The notes below the pieces were generated by a model. The model saw only the letters and a program-made list of their open reading frames with translations. It was not told the DNA's origin and did no database searches. A stretch of DNA of 14,053 nt from Fidelibacterota bacterium (lineage in GTDB: Bacteria > Fidelibacterota > Fidelibacteria > Fidelibacterales > Fidelibacteraceae). Positions 1 to 14,053 of this stretch are shown piece after piece (within the stretch, counting starts at the first letter, position 1; each line of letters opens with the position of its first letter). Both the position numbers and the translations under genes were made by a program. Location: contig JAYEOX010000093.1 in assembly GCA_034723415.1 (NCBI GenBank), forward strand, positions 1 to 14,053. Direction: 5' to 3'.

Positions 1-2396
1 TACGGCATAACATCTTCTTCAATCCAATAGAATACAGAAGCTCTATTTACATCCGGCATAAATTGATATTTGAAATCTTTATCTTTCAGTATTTTACTTA
101 TTTTTCGTTGTTTGATCTTTAAATATTTAGTTAGATTAAAATAATCATCTTCATTTAAGTGATTAATATCTTTTAAAGTAATATCCTCAAAAAGTTTTGA
201 TCTAACAGGCAACCCGATTATTTGAGACAACAGTTCGTTAATTGAAATATCACTTCGTTGAACTATTAACAATGTCTTTGCTTGACTTTTTATATATCTG
301 ACAAATGCTTCTGAAGTACTAAATTGGAATAGATTTTGCATGTTCACATTTATTCTATTTAATTCATCTTGAGAAAATATTAATACTTTATTCATTAGTG
401 GATATTTTTGACCTTCAACTTCAATTGGTCCCCAACCTTCTACAAACATTTGATAACTATTTTTCTCTAATGCTTTGATTTCCTCATCTGTAATTCCGGC
501 ATTTTTTAGTAAATAATAATAACCGGGACTAAAAGTTCCCCAATCTTGATCGGTCATTTTTTCTTTTCTTTTGTAAATTTTATCTCTTACAAAATCAATA
601 AAATTTCGAGCAAAATCATCATAACCAATTAATTGGTCAGTCAATTCTTTTTCTAATTTTTTAGCAGAAATGCTTTTACCTTGTTCGATGCCATAGATAT
701 TGAAAATTCTATGAGATGTATTCTTTTCAAATCTATAGTTTAAACCATCATTAATTAATTTTGGTTCATAATTTTCAAACCCTTTTACATTGATTTCTAA
801 ATTTGTTTTTTCACCAAATAATTTTCCAATTTTTCTGAATTGATTTACAAATTCAGCAGATGCTTCAAGTTCTTGTTTGGTTCCACTGTTGTGAATCTGG
901 AATGATAAAAAATTATATTCATATTCGTTTAACAGATCAGCAATGATTTCCATTTTTTCTCTGTTTTCAGCTTTATCTTTAGTATGATTTCCTGCATCTC
1001 CGATTACGATTAGGAAATTTGTACCATCTGCATCGACAGGGGAGTCGTAAAGTGAATTAATTATTCCATCAAACATGCTTTCGGTAAATGTATAATTATG
1101 AACATCTTTTGCTGCTACATTACTTAAAAACTTTAAAATATCTTTTGTATTTCCAAATTCTTTCACTTTGAATGCCTTCTCTTCACCTTCAGAAATATCA
1201 CGATAGATCCCAACTGCGAAATTGAATTTATTATTACTGTTTTTCTCTTTCACTTTTACCATAAATTTAGTGATTGCATTTTTGACCGAGCCAAAATATG
1301 GCTGCATGCTTTTAGTAGCATCAATAACAAAAAACACATTTACATTCTTTTTCTTAATAAGTTTCTTAGTAATTTTATCAATTACTTTGGAAAAATTTTC
1401 AGCAGAAATAATTGTTTCTTCTCTATTTTTAACATCGCCAATAATTCCGGCTTTAAGAATTTTGACTTTTTTATTGTCATATTGTGTTGTTTTTGGATTT
1501 TGTAAAAGTGGAAATCTTGGCAATGAACCATTTGCTCTCTTTTTAAGGCTATCCTTATCCCAAATTTTCATGCTATCAGAAATTGAATTATTTGAAGCAG
1601 AATATTTTAAACAGGATTCTTTATCTGCCCAAAAAACCAACTGCTGTTTATTTCTTCTCTCTTTTTGAGCTTCTTTTTTCCAGTTCGGTTCTACAGCAAT
1701 TCTAGAATCCCAATCAATTAAACGATTTTTACGTGTCCAGCCCAATATTTCTTCTTTATCATTAATTGATGCAATAAAATCTGCAGTCGATAATAAATAC
1801 CATTCATTACCTTCAGAATCAATATCAGTTTTATATACATAATAATATTCAAACATTTGAGATTTGTTGCCTGTAAATTCGGCATCTTTGGACGGAGCAC
1901 TTCTAAATTTTACATAATTGAGATCGTATATATCTTGGCCCTTTATTGTTTCTACAGTATTTACAACTAATGCTTTTTTATTTATATTGTATTTTGATGT
2001 AACAAGACATTTATTCCATAGTAACAATTCTCTTTTATGAATCCATCCAAAATCTATAGCGTCTTTAGACAGATCTCTTCCTTGAACATTTTCGTCTTTA
2101 TAAATATGAGCAAATTCTTCATCTTCTTCTATTATATAATAATAGTCCATATATTCAAGTTGCTTTTTTACAGCACTGCTTGGTGATGGTTCACTGTATG
2201 TTTTTGCTCCATTTATCGGTGAATATACGATCCAATTAGCAAAAGTTTTATCTTTTTTTTCTGTTACAGGTGATAGATCATTTTCATTACTCGGAATATT
2301 ATATTTTCGAGGATATCTCAAAATCTTCTGTCCAAATAGTAAATTAAATGCAAAAATTGAAATTACTGCTGTTAATAATAGAATATTTTTTTTCAT
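1..2396 (-). CDS. Secreted VWA-domain protein with two N-terminal SH3-like repeats, TssR-like (T6SSiii TssR family); stop codon probably cut by the window edge
   Basis: Manual translation gives an open frame from ATG at 2396 (GGAG SD at 2402-2405) to position 3, 798 codons, then 'TA' at the edge. Signal peptide MKKNILLLTAVISIFAFNLLFG|Q. VWA MIDAS-like motif NVFFVIDATKSM (Asp codon 1320-1322), then FAVGIYRD and LIVIGDAGNH (Asp 996-998). The C-terminus is FYWIEEDVMP. Size, architecture and C-terminal motif match my recollection of TssR; no search was run. Confidence 0.8.
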   Translation of the reverse strand, partial: MKKNILLLTAVISIFAFNLLFGQKILRYPRKYNIPSNENDLSPVTEKKDKTFANWIVYSPINGAKTYSEPSPSSAVKKQLEYMDYYYIIEEDEEFAHIYKDENVQGRDLSKDAIDFGWIHKRELLLWNKCLVTSKYNINKKALVVNTVETIKGQDIYDLNYVKFRSAPSKDAEFTGNKSQMFEYYYVYKTDIDSEGNEWYLLSTADFIASINDKEEILGWTRKNRLIDWDSRIAVEPNWKKEAQKERRNKQQLVFWADKESCLKYSASNNSISDSMKIWDKDSLKKRANGSLPRFPLLQNPKTTQYDNKKVKILKAGIIGDVKNREETIISAENFSKVIDKITKKLIKKKNVNVFFVIDATKSMQPYFGSVKNAITKFMVKVKEKNSNNKFNFAVGIYRDISEGEEKAFKVKEFGNTKDILKFLSNVAAKDVHNYTFTESMFDGIINSLYDSPVDADGTNFLIVIGDAGNHTKDKAENREKMEIIADLLNEYEYNFLSFQIHNSGTKQELEASAEFVNQFRKIGKLFGEKTNLEINVKGFENYEPKLINDGLNYRFEKNTSHRIFNIYGIEQGKSISAKKLEKELTDQLIGYDDFARNFIDFVRDKIYKRKEKMTDQDWGTFSPGYYYLLKNAGITDEEIKALEKNSYQMFVEGWGPIEVEGQKYPLMNKVLIFSQDELNRINVNMQNLFQFSTSEAFVRYIKSQAKTLLIVQRSDISINELLSQIIGLPVRSKLFEDITLKDINHLNEDDYFNLTKYLKIKQRKISKILKDKDFKYQFMPDVNRASVFYWIEEDVMP

Positions 2397-2406
2397 TTTT
2401 TCTCCG

Positions 2407-3273
2407 TTACTTATTATCATATATTTTAATTATATCTTTTTTTGAGCTGTCAACAAAAGATATTTCTAAATTTTCATAATTTGTTAATATATCATCATTT
2501 TGAAAATTTAATTCCGGAATATATATCTTTGTATTTATATTTTTATGGTTATCTAATTGTTTATCTAATAATTTAAATTTTTCATTATCAAATTTAAAAA
2601 CATATTTTGATAATAATAGATGCACATCATAATCTTCAACTTCAGAATAATAATCAGAAACAAATAATTCATCATAAAAATCATTTATTCTATCGAATAT
2701 TTTATTAAATAAAGAAGTTTCGGTAATTGTATAAAGTTTCTTCCAGCAATCCTGGTCATCTTTGGTTGAAATTTTAACTATTCCATTTGTAATATAAGTA
2801 TATAATTCATTATTGTCTGCGACTTTTTTAATATTATTATATACATCATCTCTGTTAATCCCACCATCAACAATATCTGTAAAAATCACCTGATACGGAT
2901 TATAAATGATCGGAATAATAAGTTTGATATATTCCTGTTTTTTATCATTTTCCGGAAGAATAATTTCAAAAGTAATATTTTTCAAATTTTTCTCATTCAT
3001 TCGCCATCTATTTTTTTGGTTTTTGTTTAAGATCAATTCCAAATTATCGATATTTAATTTATTAATTTCTTTAATAAAATCCTTTTTCTTAAATACCTTA
3101 TGTTCATTGTTTTTAATTGAAAATGTTTTATATCGTAATCCGGCAGGGACTTTAGTATTTTTCCCTTGTTCACTTACTATTTTCCATTCAATTACTGCAT
3201 CTATTTCTTTTTTCCATAGATTACAACTGCTCGTGAAAATAGCTATAATTATTAAAAAGATAATTTTTTTCAT
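2407..3273 (-). CDS. Hypothetical lipoprotein (288 aa)
   Basis: MKKIIFLIIIAIFTSSC has a basic N-region, a hydrophobic core and a lipobox-like TSSC (Cys17). An AGGTG SD lies upstream. The stop is 10 nt before the start of the TssR-like gene. Confidence 0.8.
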   Translation of the reverse strand: MKKIIFLIIIAIFTSSCNLWKKEIDAVIEWKIVSEQGKNTKVPAGLRYKTFSIKNNEHKVFKKKDFIKEINKLNIDNLELILNKNQKNRWRMNEKNLKNITFEIILPENDKKQEYIKLIIPIIYNPYQVIFTDIVDGGINRDDVYNNIKKVADNNELYTYITNGIVKISTKDDQDCWKKLYTITETSLFNKIFDRINDFYDELFVSDYYSEVEDYDVHLLLSKYVFKFDNEKFKLLDKQLDNHKNINTKIYIPELNFQNDDILTNYENLEISFVDSSKKDIIKIYDNK

Positions 3274-3312
3274 TTTACACCTATATTTTTTATTTTATTC
3301 ACCATAATCATT

Positions 3313-3340
3313 ATTTTAATTTAATAAAAATCTATGTCAA
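3313..3340 (-). promoter_or_regulatory. Putative sigma70 promoter for the lipoprotein/TssR-like unit
   Basis: On the minus strand, TTGACA (3340-3335), a 16-nt spacer and TAAAAT (3318-3313) sit about 40 nt upstream of the lipoprotein ATG. Confidence 0.55.
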
Positions 3341-3510: not shown

Positions 3511-4125
3511 CTATTCAGATCGTACTGTATTTTGCAATTTTCGATTTATTTCCAATATCAATTCACCTGCTTTATCAATATCTTTTCCAAGTGAAATGAA
3601 GCCGTGTTCTTTCAAAATTATAAAATTGTTTTGTTCTAAAACTTCTAATATAGAGTTCACGAGATTAATAGTTCCGTAATTGGCAAATTTTTTAGTAGAA
3701 ATCAAACTAATTTTTTTATAATTTTGCAACAATTTATTAAAATGTCCATGGAAAATTACATTTATGTCATTTCTTGTTTTATAAATTGCATGGTGAATCA
3801 TGGTTTCTGAAGACGGATTTCGTAATCCAGTTGCATAAATTATTTTTTTTTGTAAATCTGTATTTTTCACAAATACAAAATCGACCATTCGTAATTTTTC
3901 AATATCAGAGTAAGAAGCTGTGATAATGAATCCAGATTTATAACGAAAACTTAAATTTCCACCGGAACTTTTTATTTTTGGTTCATTTTTGTTTTTATAA
4001 TGGGGAATGAAATCATGTTTTGAAAGTATCTTTCCCCAAGAAGTTAATTTTTTTATTTTTTCAGAATATTTAATTTCTTCTTTTTTGAGTATTGTCTTAA
4101 ATTTTGTTCCTTGATAATTTTTCAT
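3511..4125 (-). CDS. Class II aldolase/adducin-family protein (MtnB- or Ald2/DrdA-like)
   Basis: Motifs GGNLSFR, IITAS, PSSETMIHHAIY, VIFHGH and LKEHG give the Glu plus three-His metal site of class II aldolases. The gene starts 2 nt after the mtnA stop. Confidence 0.85.
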   Translation of the reverse strand: MKNYQGTKFKTILKKEEIKYSEKIKKLTSWGKILSKHDFIPHYKNKNEPKIKSSGGNLSFRYKSGFIITASYSDIEKLRMVDFVFVKNTDLQKKIIYATGLRNPSSETMIHHAIYKTRNDINVIFHGHFNKLLQNYKKISLISTKKFANYGTINLVNSILEVLEQNNFIILKEHGFISLGKDIDKAGELILEINRKLQNTVRSE

Positions 4126-4127
4126 AA

Positions 4128-5126
4128 TTATAACTTTGTAATTAGCTCGCTTGGTTTGAATATCCCATTTTCAGTAATGATTCCATTAATGTATTTTGCA
4201 GGAGTAACATCAAAAGCTGGATTAAGTATTTTGCTTTTTCCATTGGCAACTTGTTTCCCAAAAACTTCTCTAACTTCCCTTGATTCTCGTTCCTCAATTA
4301 TTATTTCATTACCGGTTTTACACTTCATATCAATTGTACTGGATGGAGCTGCAACATAAAATGGTATATTATTTTCTTTTGCAACTACGGCCTTTTCATA
4401 AGTTCCTATTTTATTTGCGACATCGCCATTTACAGATATTCTATCTGCTCCAACAAAAACAATGTCAATTTTTTTCTTTTGCATATAGTAACCGGCAGCA
4501 TTATCTACAATTATTGCATGAGGGATTTTTGAATAAGCAAGTTCCCATGCAGTTAATCGACTTCCCTGTAAACGAGGTCTGGTTTCATCTACAAAAACAA
4601 AGATGTTTTTTTTCCCATTTTCAAAAGCAAGATAGATTGGAGCTGTAGCGGAACCATAACCTTGAATTGCTAATTTTCCAGCATTGCAATGAGTTAAAAT
4701 TCCAAATCCATCTTCTATAAGTTCTGCCCCAATTTTGCCAATTAATTTTGAGTTATGAATATCATTTTTAAGAATATTATTGGCAATTTCCCATGCCATT
4801 TTTTTTGGATTATTTGAAAGTATAGCTTTTGAATAGACAAGATTTGTTGAATAAAAAAGATTTTGCGCAGTTGGACGAGTTGATTCAATTTCTGCTTTTG
4901 CTTTTAAGATTTTGGTCTTTTCAGAAAACTCGGAAAATGCTTGAGCCATAGCATATGCAGCTGCAATTCCAATTGTTCCAGCTCCTCGTACATTCATGTT
5001 TTTTATTGCGTTAGCAGTTTCATGATAATTTATCAAAGTAAGATATTCAAATTTAAAAGGAAGTTTAGTTTGATCGAGTAAAATAACTTTACCATTTTTT
5101 TCATAAATTATTTCATTGTGTTTCAT
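4128..5126 (-). CDS. mtnA: S-methyl-5-thioribose-1-phosphate isomerase (eIF-2B alpha-like)
   Basis: Motifs LLDQTKLP, VRGA, RPTA, LTHCNAG (catalytic Cys), DETRPRLQGSRLTAWEL, VGADRI, NKIGTY and NPAFDVTP. AAGGA SD upstream. Confidence 0.93.
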   Translation of the reverse strand: MKHNEIIYEKNGKVILLDQTKLPFKFEYLTLINYHETANAIKNMNVRGAGTIGIAAAYAMAQAFSEFSEKTKILKAKAEIESTRPTAQNLFYSTNLVYSKAILSNNPKKMAWEIANNILKNDIHNSKLIGKIGAELIEDGFGILTHCNAGKLAIQGYGSATAPIYLAFENGKKNIFVFVDETRPRLQGSRLTAWELAYSKIPHAIIVDNAAGYYMQKKKIDIVFVGADRISVNGDVANKIGTYEKAVVAKENNIPFYVAAPSSTIDMKCKTGNEIIIEERESREVREVFGKQVANGKSKILNPAFDVTPAKYINGIITENGIFKPSELITKL

Positions 5127-6801: not shown

Positions 6802-8568
6802 ATGAAATCTTTTAAAATAATAATCGTTGTATTTTTTGCATTTATATTCTCATTAAAAGTGTATGCATTTGATACTACGAATGTTCGTATTGAACAACTA
6901 AATGATTATTATAAAATCAATGGTGTTTCAAAGACTCAAATTTTTTACAAAAAATATTTTTTATGGGCAGAAATTGTAAATAATAGTAAGATCTATTCAA
7001 AAAATACTCAACAAGTTAAGATAAAAAATGAGTTAAATTCATCAATAAATATATCGAGATATTTCTTTAATAATTTCAGTAGTGGAATAAAATTAAATTA
7101 TTTTAATTTAAGTGATGAACACATAAATTATTCTAATGATTATTCAAAAATGCTCATTGGTTTATCAAATCAATATAAACCCAATATGAAATATATTTTC
7201 GACACCGGATATTTGTCGGAAAACAGATTAAAAATTGAAGATAATGGATATTTTATAAAATTAAAAATTATTCCAAATACAGATTATAAATTAAAGCCAT
7301 TTTCAAATTTGGTTTTTGAGAAAACTAAAAAAAGAGAAAATTATAAATTTGACAATAAATTCATTTTTGATACAGATATTACAAATGATGTAAAAAATAA
7401 AATTGAAGGAAGGTACAATGTCATCAATCGGGAATATTTTGTTGATGAGTTAGGAAATAATATTGAAAAAAGATTAAATGAAAGATACAATATTCGAAAT
7501 AGTTTGACTTTCCCATTATTCTCAAATTCAAAAATGAATTATGATGTGGAATACATTTCAAATAATGATAAACATAGATTTACCTATTCAGATTCTATGG
7601 TCAGCCGTGTATATGAAAGGTTTGAATTTAACAATAAGATCAAATTAATAAATAATTTCCATAAATTGAGAACAACATTTTATTTATCAAATGAATACAA
7701 ACAATATAATTCGAAAGCCACATCTGAAGGAATACATTTACCTGCTGGCTATACTTTTGACAAGAAGAATTTTAAGATCAAATCCTCATATCAATTTTCA
7801 AATAAAGATAGTGTTGAAATTAAATATTTCGCTTCATTATTAAATTTCAATACGCCGGATACATCTAATTATGACGATAGAGATGAGTTATCTTATTCTA
7901 TTAATATGAAGTGGAGACATAGAATAAATTCATATTTAAACTTTGCAATATCTGGAAATTTTTATTTTCATCATTTGGTATATTTGTGGCATCAAAGATC
8001 GGCTCAGAATCATTGGAATAGAATATTTTCATTACAATCTGATCTGATGTTAAATATACCTGATAGGATTATTTGGAGTTCACATCAGGAAATATATACT
8101 AATTTTTTTGTTTATGATTATGAAAATTTACCATTTGTTCATATTAATAGTATGGTATTCCGAGGATTGAAACTTAATCAAAATTTTAGATATTTTTTTG
8201 ATAATCGGTATGGAACAAATTTTCAATTCTTTATCAGATGGGAAGATAGGGGTTTTCTAGATTGGGATAATTTTTATCAAGAGTTGACTAATGACAAATT
8301 CGAATATAAAGTATCTCTATCCGGTTTTAGGAAATTTAAAAATTTATCAGTTAATGCAGGACCAATGTATTCTCAACGTTTTGAGTATAGATATGACATA
8401 TCAAATAATAAATATTTGAGTTTTTATTCATATAGAAAGGGTGTGAATTTGTCTATAAAATATAAAAGGATATTTAATATTAATTATAATATACAGAAAA
8501 TAAAACAATCTAATAGAGAATCATATTATAATAATTCCGGATTTGTGAGCATTCATTTTGTTATTTAA
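6802..8568 (+). CDS. Hypothetical exported protein, probable outer-membrane beta-barrel (588 aa)
   Basis: Signal peptide ending in VYA. The sequence is Tyr/Phe/Asn-rich with alternating amphipathic segments and ends in a strand-like GFVSIHFVI. No family assignment. Confidence 0.65.
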   Translation: MKSFKIIIVVFFAFIFSLKVYAFDTTNVRIEQLNDYYKINGVSKTQIFYKKYFLWAEIVNNSKIYSKNTQQVKIKNELNSSINISRYFFNNFSSGIKLNYFNLSDEHINYSNDYSKMLIGLSNQYKPNMKYIFDTGYLSENRLKIEDNGYFIKLKIIPNTDYKLKPFSNLVFEKTKKRENYKFDNKFIFDTDITNDVKNKIEGRYNVINREYFVDELGNNIEKRLNERYNIRNSLTFPLFSNSKMNYDVEYISNNDKHRFTYSDSMVSRVYERFEFNNKIKLINNFHKLRTTFYLSNEYKQYNSKATSEGIHLPAGYTFDKKNFKIKSSYQFSNKDSVEIKYFASLLNFNTPDTSNYDDRDELSYSINMKWRHRINSYLNFAISGNFYFHHLVYLWHQRSAQNHWNRIFSLQSDLMLNIPDRIIWSSHQEIYTNFFVYDYENLPFVHINSMVFRGLKLNQNFRYFFDNRYGTNFQFFIRWEDRGFLDWDNFYQELTNDKFEYKVSLSGFRKFKNLSVNAGPMYSQRFEYRYDISNNKYLSFYSYRKGVNLSIKYKRIFNINYNIQKIKQSNRESYYNNSGFVSIHFVI

Positions 8569-12592: not shown

Positions 12593-14053
12593 ATGAAAAA
12601 AATATTAACATTTGTAACCATTATTTTATTCGTTACTGTAGCTTTTTCAGAAACCGGCAAAATTGAAAAAATTCAAAAGGCAATCATAAAAAAAGGTGCA
12701 AATTGGGAAGCAGGTGAAAATTGGGTAACTCGTTTATCAAAAGAAGAACAGAAAAAATTATGTAATTATAAAAGAGTGATACCAAAATTACAAAAAGGTG
12801 ATTTGTTGCAATTGGAAATGACTGAAAATTTGCCAAGTGAATTTGATTGGCGAGATAAAGATGAAAAAAATTGGGTGACAGCAGTTAGAGATCAAGATAC
12901 TGCAGGAACTTGCTGGGCATTTTCTACACTTGGACAAGTTGAATCTTGGTGGAAAATAAAAAATTCCATGCCGGATTCTGCAATTGACCTTTCAGAACAA
13001 TTTTTGGTTTCTTGTAATCCGAATGTTAGAGCAAATTCAGGATATTGGGTAGCCAGTGCATTAGATTTTATTATTGAGCAAGGCGGTGTAGCAACTGAAA
13101 CCTGTTTTCCATATTCCCATAATGATGCACCTTGTACTAATGGATGTTCAAATTGGCAAGATGATGCAGTATCAATTCCCGACTGGGGATATATTACTTC
13201 AAATATTGCCGATGTGGAAACAATAAAAAATGCAGTTTATCGTCATCCTGTTTCTGCTTCGTTTATTGTCTATTCAGATTTTCCTACTTATGTAAATGGT
13301 GTCTATGAGCATGTTTGGGGCGAAGATGAAGGCGGACATGCGGTATTAATTGTCGGTTGGATTGATTCACTGGAATGTTGGATAGTCAAAAACAGTTGGG
13401 GGACAAGTTGGAATCCGGGTGGAGATGATCCGGGTTATTTTAAAATTAAATGGGGCGAATGTGATTTTGGTGAATATAGTGAATTTGTTTATAATAATAA
13501 AATTTCCGGGGATGCTTTTAATGTTTATGATAAAGTGTTGGAAATATCAATAAAACCGGGAAATTCTACAACAAGGACAACGGCATATAAAAACAATGAT
13601 AACTCTACAGCTTTAGAATATGCGAGTACAATTACTTACGATTCAAATAAATTAATTGAAATTGACAAAAAACATTTTCATACAGATACTTCTAATGCTT
13701 ATGATGGGAAAAGTTGGTGGTGTGGTGATACAAGTATTAATGGATATGATGATCATTGGTTGGATTATTTAGAAACTCCAATAATAGATTTGTTAAGCAC
13801 AACTTCACCAAATTTATCATTTAAGGGATATTGGGCAGTTGAATCACCAGGTGGTGAAGATCCTCCATACGACGGCTGGGACGGATGCAATGTTTGGGTT
13901 TCTACTGACGGCGGTAAAAATTTTAATGTAATTGAACCAATTTCTCCGATTTATGATTGCCAACATTTATGGAGTTTTGGTCATCCCGGACAAGGTTGGG
14001 GAATGGGAACTGAAATCGCCGGTTGGGCAGGAAAAAGTAATAGTTGGAAAGAT
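12593..14053 (+). CDS. Secreted papain-family (C1A-like) cysteine peptidase with C-terminal beta-sandwich (MAM/adhesin-like) domain; 3'-truncated
   Basis: AAGGA SD and ATG at 12593, open for 487 codons to the edge. Signal peptide MKKILTFVTIILFVTVAFS, then a propeptide, LPSEFDWRD, VRDQDTAGTCWAF (Gln101, Cys107), DLSEQFLVSC, GGHAVLIVGW (His249) and WIVKNSWG (Asn267). Later SWWCG, LETPIIDL and YDGWDGCNVWVSTDGG. Confidence 0.92.
   Translation, partial: MKKILTFVTIILFVTVAFSETGKIEKIQKAIIKKGANWEAGENWVTRLSKEEQKKLCNYKRVIPKLQKGDLLQLEMTENLPSEFDWRDKDEKNWVTAVRDQDTAGTCWAFSTLGQVESWWKIKNSMPDSAIDLSEQFLVSCNPNVRANSGYWVASALDFIIEQGGVATETCFPYSHNDAPCTNGCSNWQDDAVSIPDWGYITSNIADVETIKNAVYRHPVSASFIVYSDFPTYVNGVYEHVWGEDEGGHAVLIVGWIDSLECWIVKNSWGTSWNPGGDDPGYFKIKWGECDFGEYSEFVYNNKISGDAFNVYDKVLEISIKPGNSTTRTTAYKNNDNSTALEYASTITYDSNKLIEIDKKHFHTDTSNAYDGKSWWCGDTSINGYDDHWLDYLETPIIDLLSTTSPNLSFKGYWAVESPGGEDPPYDGWDGCNVWVSTDGGKNFNVIEPISPIYDCQHLWSFGHPGQGWGMGTEIAGWAGKSNSWKD

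Follow-up and report, generated by a model that had tools for sequence, protein, structure and literature searches.

A TssR-family protein of Fidelibacterota and its VWA-fold lipoprotein: probable periplasmic components of an ATP-driven envelope module

Introduction

TssR is described as a component of the membrane complex (TssNQOPR) of the subtype iii type VI secretion system (T6SSiii) of Bacteroidota (PMC10781749). What, then, does a TssR-family protein do in a genome of another phylum? The question is raised by the window analyzed here, i.e., the whole stretch of 14,053 nucleotides corresponding to positions 1-14053 of contig C93 of assembly G000 (1.94 Mb, 29.6% GC, 94% complete), which contains an operon coding for a TssR-like protein (P0001) and a lipoprotein (P0002); throughout, G000 indicates the genome of the window, and C3, C85 and C93 its contigs. 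An earlier prediction on this DNA, hereafter the original prediction, had argued for a non-Bacteroidota host; this proved correct, the genus being placed in the phylum Fidelibacterota, which we take to be synonymous with Marinisomatota. It had also proposed either a contractile or T6SS-like locus continuing to the left of the window, or a stand-alone complex of the two proteins. The analyses reported below favor a different answer: with a probability of about 0.7, the VWA-fold lipoprotein and the TssR-family protein together make up the periplasmic side of an envelope module driven by ATP, with a MacB-type ATP-binding cassette (ABC) transporter as its motor and no T6SS found in the genome.

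The TssR-like protein

P0001 (798 aa; model pLDDT 85.7) is coded at positions 1..2396 (open reading frame, ORF, 3..2396) of the minus strand, on which all the operon features given below are found, and it has a signal peptide without a lipobox. Two Pfam domains were matched over their cut-offs: the TssR N-terminal barrel (PF17643, 2019..2315, residues 28-126, E 2.9e-11, 43.7 bits vs. a cut-off of 25.7) and the TssR VWA domain (PF20782, 882..1394, residues 339-504, E 2.4e-12, 47 bits). TssR_M and TssR_C have no Pfam match on P0001 itself; orthologs from families f14 and f20 of the phylum, 28-30% identical to P0001, match all four TssR domains, and among 53 family rows TssR_C was matched in 36 and TssR_M in 25. 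The family profile aligns to canonical TssR over positions 10-780 and matches three annotated T6SS TssRs (E 5e-59, 1e-27 and 4e-24), the best of them, from Capnocytophaga, from end to end; like T6SSiii TssR, P0001 has about 800 aa, with N-terminal barrels, VWA and a helical C-terminal domain in the same order. The comparison with TssR and VWA profiles hence reveals a similarity beyond a generic VWA domain, and the identification as a TssR homologue, already made in the original prediction, is confirmed. The C-terminal motif YWIEEDVMP (3..29) has a W and a P that are invariant in the 53 rows.

The VWA domain bears a motif of the metal ion-dependent adhesion site (MIDAS) type, in the DxTxS variant, D359-x-T361-x-S363 (1308..1322), followed downstream by E439 and D467, and metal binding is predicted; the D, the S and D467 are kept in 53/53 rows, the T and the E in 52/53. 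In this respect P0001 differs from the T6SS proteins: the D-x-T-x-S motif is near-invariant in the 53 ABC-type rows, whereas it is absent in three of three T6SS TssRs, which stand on a separate side of the tree (support 100; long branches, midpoint root only; near-duplicate rows were left out of the trees). Loss of the metal site in the T6SS TssRs would be the simpler reading of this motif pattern, in a sample of three rows. A further difference regards the membrane anchor, as TssR of B. fragilis is reported to be a signal peptidase II (SPII) lipoprotein (PMC10781749), while P0001 has no Cys in its N-terminal region, does not qualify as an SPII lipoprotein, and belongs to a group in which a lipobox-like pattern occurs in 4 of 82 full-length relatives. 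The genomic context also diverges: the gene upstream codes for the PKD-containing TssP in T6SSiii and for a VWA-fold lipoprotein here, where no tssN/O/P/Q or tail genes were found, the host is not a member of Bacteroidota and the link is to an ABC transporter.

Fold searches with the P0001 model returned VWA domains (best Z 16.7), the best matches being those of pilus-tip adhesins, and the whole 798-aa model gave no match other than VWA domains. Against bacterial SH3, the N-terminal barrel reached an Atlas feature score of 0.85, short of the threshold of 0.9, and SH3_3 was matched in 1/53 rows; the SH3b identity of these barrels is a lead only. No solved TssR-family structure was found by sequence, and no plasmid match for P0001; viral contigs gave three short matches, to the VWA part only. 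NCBI names one relative “tssR”.

The lipoprotein and its predicted binding to the TssR-like protein

P0002 (288 aa, 2407..3273), the conserved partner of the TssR-like protein, is coded upstream of it, the two genes being separated by a 10-nt spacer containing GGAG (2397..2406); the two ORFs match the earlier description of a lipoprotein and a 798-aa signal-peptide protein 10 nt apart. The signal peptide II (3223..3273) includes the lipobox MKKIIFLIIIAIFTSSC and Cys17, with S16-C17 invariant in 9/9 rows. P0002 has no match in Pfam, and its close relatives were found only at identities of at least 62%.

The C-terminal domain of P0002 (about residues 121-288, 2410..2913) is predicted to adopt a VWA fold, on the basis of profile comparison and of a structural model. 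Compared by hhalign with the family of domains coded upstream of TssR-like genes in other loci, it gave a probability of 93.7% (E 1.8e-7), against 0.4% for the reversed control; with the hidden Markov model (HMM) of that family P0002 alone fails, and two of its orthologs pass weakly. The domain model (pLDDT 83) has an integrin I-domain as its best fold match (Z 12.7, rmsd 3.0, 157 aligned residues), and the top matches are all VWA. In the Atlas, no usable match to this domain was obtained. When full-length profiles of the 288-aa lipoprotein family and of the 462-aa family found in f14 and f20 were compared, only the signal peptide was matched, and the homology of the two families emerged only with their C-terminal domains.

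Co-folding of P0001 (residues 22-798) with P0002 (residues 120-288) gave a score of 0.74, against 0.00 for the best of three controls; the mark is one reached by 116 of 157 solved pairs and by 2 of 215 mismatched pairs, rates that are only roughly valid here, where own alignments were used. The runs share at least 70% of contacts, with a partner pLDDT of at least 73. The core of the predicted interface is formed by residues 178-190 of P0002 (2704..2742), 11 of these 13 residues being invariant in nine close relatives, and it lies on residues 51-56, 104-107, 207-213, 676-691 and 767-785 of P0001; the confident contacts include none of the MIDAS residues. The co-folding thus supports binding between the lipoprotein and the TssR-like protein, in agreement with the partnership that the original prediction had suggested.

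The ABC transporter

A third component emerged from metagenome loci. The scan covered the best 80 of 134 confirmed loci, and the counts refer to the 78 not from this genus, after dropping those with too short flanks (13/78 upstream, 17 and 29/78 downstream; at least 800 bp were required for the downstream ATPase). An ABC ATPase is coded directly downstream of the TssR-like gene in 59/61 loci and a permease in 47/49, and a domain of about 170 aa related to P0002 is found directly upstream in 56/65, with neighbor profiles that were built from the same loci, several of which are near-copies. Two or three TssR-like frames, split or additional, are found in 14 loci. The family is large, with 1,412 clusters at 50% identity and E <= 1e-30, a count that includes the T6SS TssRs.

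Some variants were observed among these loci. Extra TssR-like paralogs, often shorter (about 480-500 aa) and some with the same YW end motif, are present in the operons of L041, L043, L047-L049, L057, L059-L061, L091, L099, L103 and L110. In L071, L085, L086 and L090 the ABC proteins have about 1,010-1,030 aa and the TssR-like proteins 834-910 aa, and in L092, L093, L094, L104, L106 and L112 genes for a tubulin-like protein (Tubulin_2) and a trypsin-like protease lie 3′ of the ABC genes.

Of the 401 genomes of the phylum, 13 have a PF17643 match over the cut-off, namely 5/5 of this genus, 7/9 of family f14 and 1/1 of f20 (a sub-threshold match with five stops in G054 was left out). Strong permease matches (E <= 1.5e-53) occur in 12 of these 13 genomes and in none of the other 388; 28 genomes with weak matches (E >= 7e-6, mostly at profile positions ~370-511 and in frames of ~400 aa) were left out. 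The gene order in f14 and f20 is lipoprotein (~462 aa), TssR-like protein (~820 aa) and an ABC ATPase fused to an FtsX-type permease (~820 aa); this three-gene operon is whole on five contigs, gapped in G144 and distributed on two contigs in G110. The identities of TssR and permease are correlated (Mantel rho 0.85), which reflects co-inheritance among kin only.

In G000, the permease profile, built without Marinisomatota rows, has a single match (E 1e-70), an 831-aa protein coded at C85:2362-4857. It shows the Walker A motif GKSGCGKT, the Walker B/D-loop DEPTGNLD and the H-loop VTH, followed by four predicted transmembrane (TM) helices (at 349, 701, 758 and 795, from hydropathy) with a 330-residue loop between TM1 and TM2; the FtsX domain is matched at E 5e-5, just under the cut-off, and is positive in 34/39 permease rows; no Pfam match to the MacB periplasmic domain was found. 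These features, read from the sequence, are those of a type VII ABC transporter, for which an ATP-driven periplasmic action is predicted. The relationship with MacB, LolCDE, FtsEX-EnvC and YbbAP-TesA is apparent in the ATPase fused to a four-TM permease, the large loop after TM1, the FtsX C-terminal domain, the presence of a periplasmic partner and weak matches of the permease profile to FtsX and YtrF structures. Unlike those systems, the partner here would be a TssR-family VWA protein with a second VWA-fold lipoprotein, and no gene for MacA/TolC, LolA, an amidase activator or a hydrolase lies beside the Marinisomatota loci that were read. The trees place P0001 (support 97) and the C85 permease (support 91) with the same fused-ABC loci. 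The dN/dS values (TssR-like gene 0.06-0.09, ABC gene 0.07-0.085, lipoprotein 0.14-0.22, malQ 0.15-0.16) indicate purifying selection on all three module genes, none of which is therefore decaying.

Two observations concern the surroundings of the ABC gene in the genus. A gene for a secreted-looking protein of 233-250 aa, with no Pfam match, lies 3′ of it in three of the five genomes (L136:5680-6411, L137:2922-3623, L138:9859-10611) and has no match in G000. Between the PepF-like gene and the ABC gene a small ORF (L114:4886-5260) combines a KTTQ tandem repeat with a helix-turn-helix-like end; it is also present in L137, and absent from L136, L138 and L139.

Search for T6SS and contractile injection genes

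The alternative that P0001 belongs to a T6SS or contractile injection system that is dispersed, highly divergent or decaying draws on the full-length homology to T6SS TssRs described above and on the report that T6SSiii loci are often split (PMC10781749). A continuation to the left of the window, as initially envisaged, was disproved: the long ORF runs up to the window edge with no stop codon, and its TAG is completed by contig C3, which overlaps the window start by 127 bp; beyond it, C3 contains a terminator-like hairpin of 12 pairs with a T run and then a convergent gene for a 636-aa membrane protein, presumably an OPT-like transporter from its sequence. The same convergent neighbor is found in L009, L010 and L034. 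The operon consists of two genes and ends after the TssR-like gene, so that no secretion locus lies to the left; the TssR-like gene is the last of the operon, which it had been stated to head.

For the rest of the genome, the positive control was a Capnocytophaga plasmid (NZ_CP027233.1) whose annotation includes a full T6SSiii. Profiles for TssC, TssN, TssD, TssO and the VgrG OB-fold matched the control strongly and gave no match in G000. TssF (PF05947) was matched neither in G000 nor in any of the 13 TssR-positive genomes, a poor test as this profile sees the control TssF only weakly; TssD, VgrG OB-fold and GPD (PF05954) were also 0/13. TssB, phage sheath (PF04984) and baseplate J (PF04865) were unmatched in the five genomes that are at least 90% complete, and TssC in all 401 genomes of the phylum; the controls for PF04984, PF04865 and PF05954 matched, and the TssB profile was controlled by E. 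coli only. The only TssO match in the 13 genomes, below threshold and in G034, corresponds to a TPR protein coded next to a decarboxylase-like operon. In a tblastn of the 15 control T6SS proteins, G000 yielded TssR (E 0.015), short pieces of ClpV, a 36-residue TssP piece on contig C16 and a 30-residue TssG piece (E 0.04), in substance TssR, PKD and weak ATPase pieces, with no match for TssQ; small divergent TssO and TssQ are, according to PMC10781749, proteins that can be missed. The same 15 proteins matched only TssR and PKD in 88 loci, and no T6SS families were found in the fetched flanks of the metagenome loci, up to 10 kb a side (23 cluster representatives searched at E 1e-3, and 142 of the remaining 157 with their first 700 residues at E 1e-15 or 1e-10).

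The genome check proposed with the original prediction thus returned no sheath (TssB/TssC), tube (TssD), spike (VgrG) or TssN/O/P/Q gene in the profile and tblastn searches of G000, whose host moreover is not one of the Bacteroidota; an extracellular contractile injection system finds no counterpart either, with sheath, baseplate J and GPD/VgrG unmatched in 5 or 13 genomes per profile. All the genomes are incomplete assemblies, a point that weighs against a T6SS-free module, so that T6SS is “not found”, short of proven absence. One genus member (G032) has a single in-frame TGA after about codon 414 of its TssR-like gene (L011:7834-10218), either a pseudogene or an assembly error; this gene was left out of the alignments and of the TssR-like dN/dS, and it might, together with the G034 match, be counted in favor of a hidden or decaying T6SS, to which the low dN/dS of the TssR-like gene is opposed. 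Overall, a hidden T6SS is very improbable, and the TssR-ABC module is in all likelihood T6SS-independent.

Proposed function

The lipoprotein, the TssR-like protein and the ABC transporter probably work together, the contact between the latter two being inferred. In type VII ABC systems ATP binding is reported to result in movement of the periplasmic domain on a partner and not in transport of a substrate across the membrane (PMC12646458). By analogy, the ABC dimer (C85:2362-4857) would export nothing across the inner membrane, and it would move its own periplasmic domain against the TssR-like protein. The lipoprotein is predicted to dock on the N-terminal barrels and on the C-terminal helical domain of the latter, leaving the MIDAS face free, and to supply the membrane anchor that T6SS TssR has on its own N-terminus. 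An envelope client could then be gripped by the MIDAS metal site through an acidic residue and released again, in a cycle that depends on ATP, a detail that we consider tentative. As a whole, the module would serve to assemble or remodel proteins of the envelope or the cell surface. Its likely clients are the outer-membrane barrels (present in 26 of the 37 long metagenome loci) and the large surface proteins that adjoin it in other loci.

Several points weigh against such a module. Profile searches of G000 returned neither barrel nor adhesin partner families, and no client gene is adjacent to the operon. An adjacent ATPase is missing in 2/61 metagenome loci, and an upstream domain, at E 1e-3, in 9/65. 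The C85 protein has the signature QSGGQ rather than LSGGQ, and its permease, for all the support of 91, sits on a long branch. Five of the 12 strong permease matches were themselves profile rows, and the co-occurrence of TssR and permease amounts to few independent events, because only two or three groups of kin are represented among the 13 positive genomes. Finally, the ABC gene is unlinked in all five genomes of the genus, where it lies on a different contig behind a PepF-like gene, and G140 (77% complete) has the lipoprotein-TssR pair and no ABC match. These last observations, with the bicistronic operon and the adhesin-like VWA folds, would fit a self-sufficient adhesion or scaffold complex of lipoprotein and TssR-like protein, in which the ABC gene is a fellow traveller or has been reassigned. 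Yet the ABC gene is kept in 5/5 genus genomes under a constraint like that on the TssR-like gene, and no TssR-negative genome of the phylum has a strong permease match. We regard this explanation as unlikely: of the stand-alone pair initially proposed, the lipoprotein partner is retained, as it is predicted to bind, and the two proteins are probably not alone, because a MacB-type ABC transporter travels with them.

A similar parts list is found in TagQRST-PpkA-Fha1 of the H1-T6SS of Pseudomonas aeruginosa, i.e., a lipoprotein (TagQ), a periplasmic partner (TagR) and an ABC ATPase (TagST); there, the lipoprotein-partner complex is reported to form and the ATPase activity to be required (PMC13713981). 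The module might thus sense envelope damage and relay it to a Ser/Thr kinase and an FHA protein, and 17 of the 37 long metagenome loci indeed contain genes for a kinase, a PP2C or an FHA protein. The other 20, however, are without them, and no kinase cluster gene lies beside the module in the fetched Marinisomatota regions; G000 has no profile match for the FHA partner, and its kinase and PP2C matches are on other contigs. Also, the folds differ, VWA and TssR here and the FGE domain in TagR (PMC13713981), and no T6SS was found that such a sensor could activate. A sensor is accordingly as improbable as the two-protein complex, and the ATP-driven assembly or remodelling module is preferred to both.

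Origin and significance

T6SSiii is reported from Bacteroidota only, and from none of over 20,000 genomes of other bacteria (PMC10781749). According to the same paper, no complete membrane complex was found without a T6SS, and the origin of the complex is difficult to trace, as its gene set is not encoded by any locus independent of T6SS; the paper does not say whether lone tssR matches were observed, and the terms “ABC transporter”, “Marinimicrobia” and “orphan” were not found in the supplementary text searched. A possible scenario, to which we assign somewhat less than an even chance, is that a type VII ABC machine of the FCB group was the ancestral home of TssR, that T6SSiii borrowed the protein from it, and that the Marinisomatota copy is a minimal core. 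In the T6SS, motor, VWA partner and metal site would have been lost, and TssR would have received a lipid anchor of its own; the widespread, undescribed machine left behind would consist of a VWA-fold anchor, a MIDAS-bearing TssR and a MacB-type motor, and the three-protein core of Marinisomatota would keep working with its genes unlinked.

No paper describing the TssR-ABC module was found in the openly accessible literature searched. New here is the non-Bacteroidota, minimal three-gene form of the module, split between two loci. One of the five T6SSiii complex proteins is now placed in another phylum, in a conserved three-part ABC module and with an intact MIDAS motif; the origin of the T6SSiii anchor becomes testable with a small, expressible complex, type VII ABC systems would gain a new class of partner, and a “tssR” annotation does not by itself indicate a T6SS.

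Operon surroundings

With P0001 as the query, the TssR-like gene was found in all four remaining genomes of the genus, at 80-93% identity, and in 0 of 30 genomes from elsewhere in the order. A Shine-Dalgarno-like AGGTG (3278..3282) precedes the lipoprotein start and is present in 5/5 genus members compared. Further upstream, the promoter of the original prediction corresponds to a sigma-70-like match, TTGACA-16-TAAAAT (3313..3340, 11/12 positions), which is a candidate only: the region contains three such sites, 3.1 being expected by chance, and the match alone is hence not significant.

The metabolic genes noted upstream were confirmed, and are those for aldolase II and MtnA (window 3511-5126), which intervene between malQ and the lipoprotein operon in this genome only; in L008-L011 and L034, malQ is the direct divergent neighbor of the operon. 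The window ends with a secreted papain-family (C1) protease (12593-14053), cut by the contig end. Between malQ and pdp, a 588-aa protein (6802-8568), conserved in the genus and with no Pfam or NCBIfam match, has a residue pattern that gives the impression of an outer-membrane barrel.

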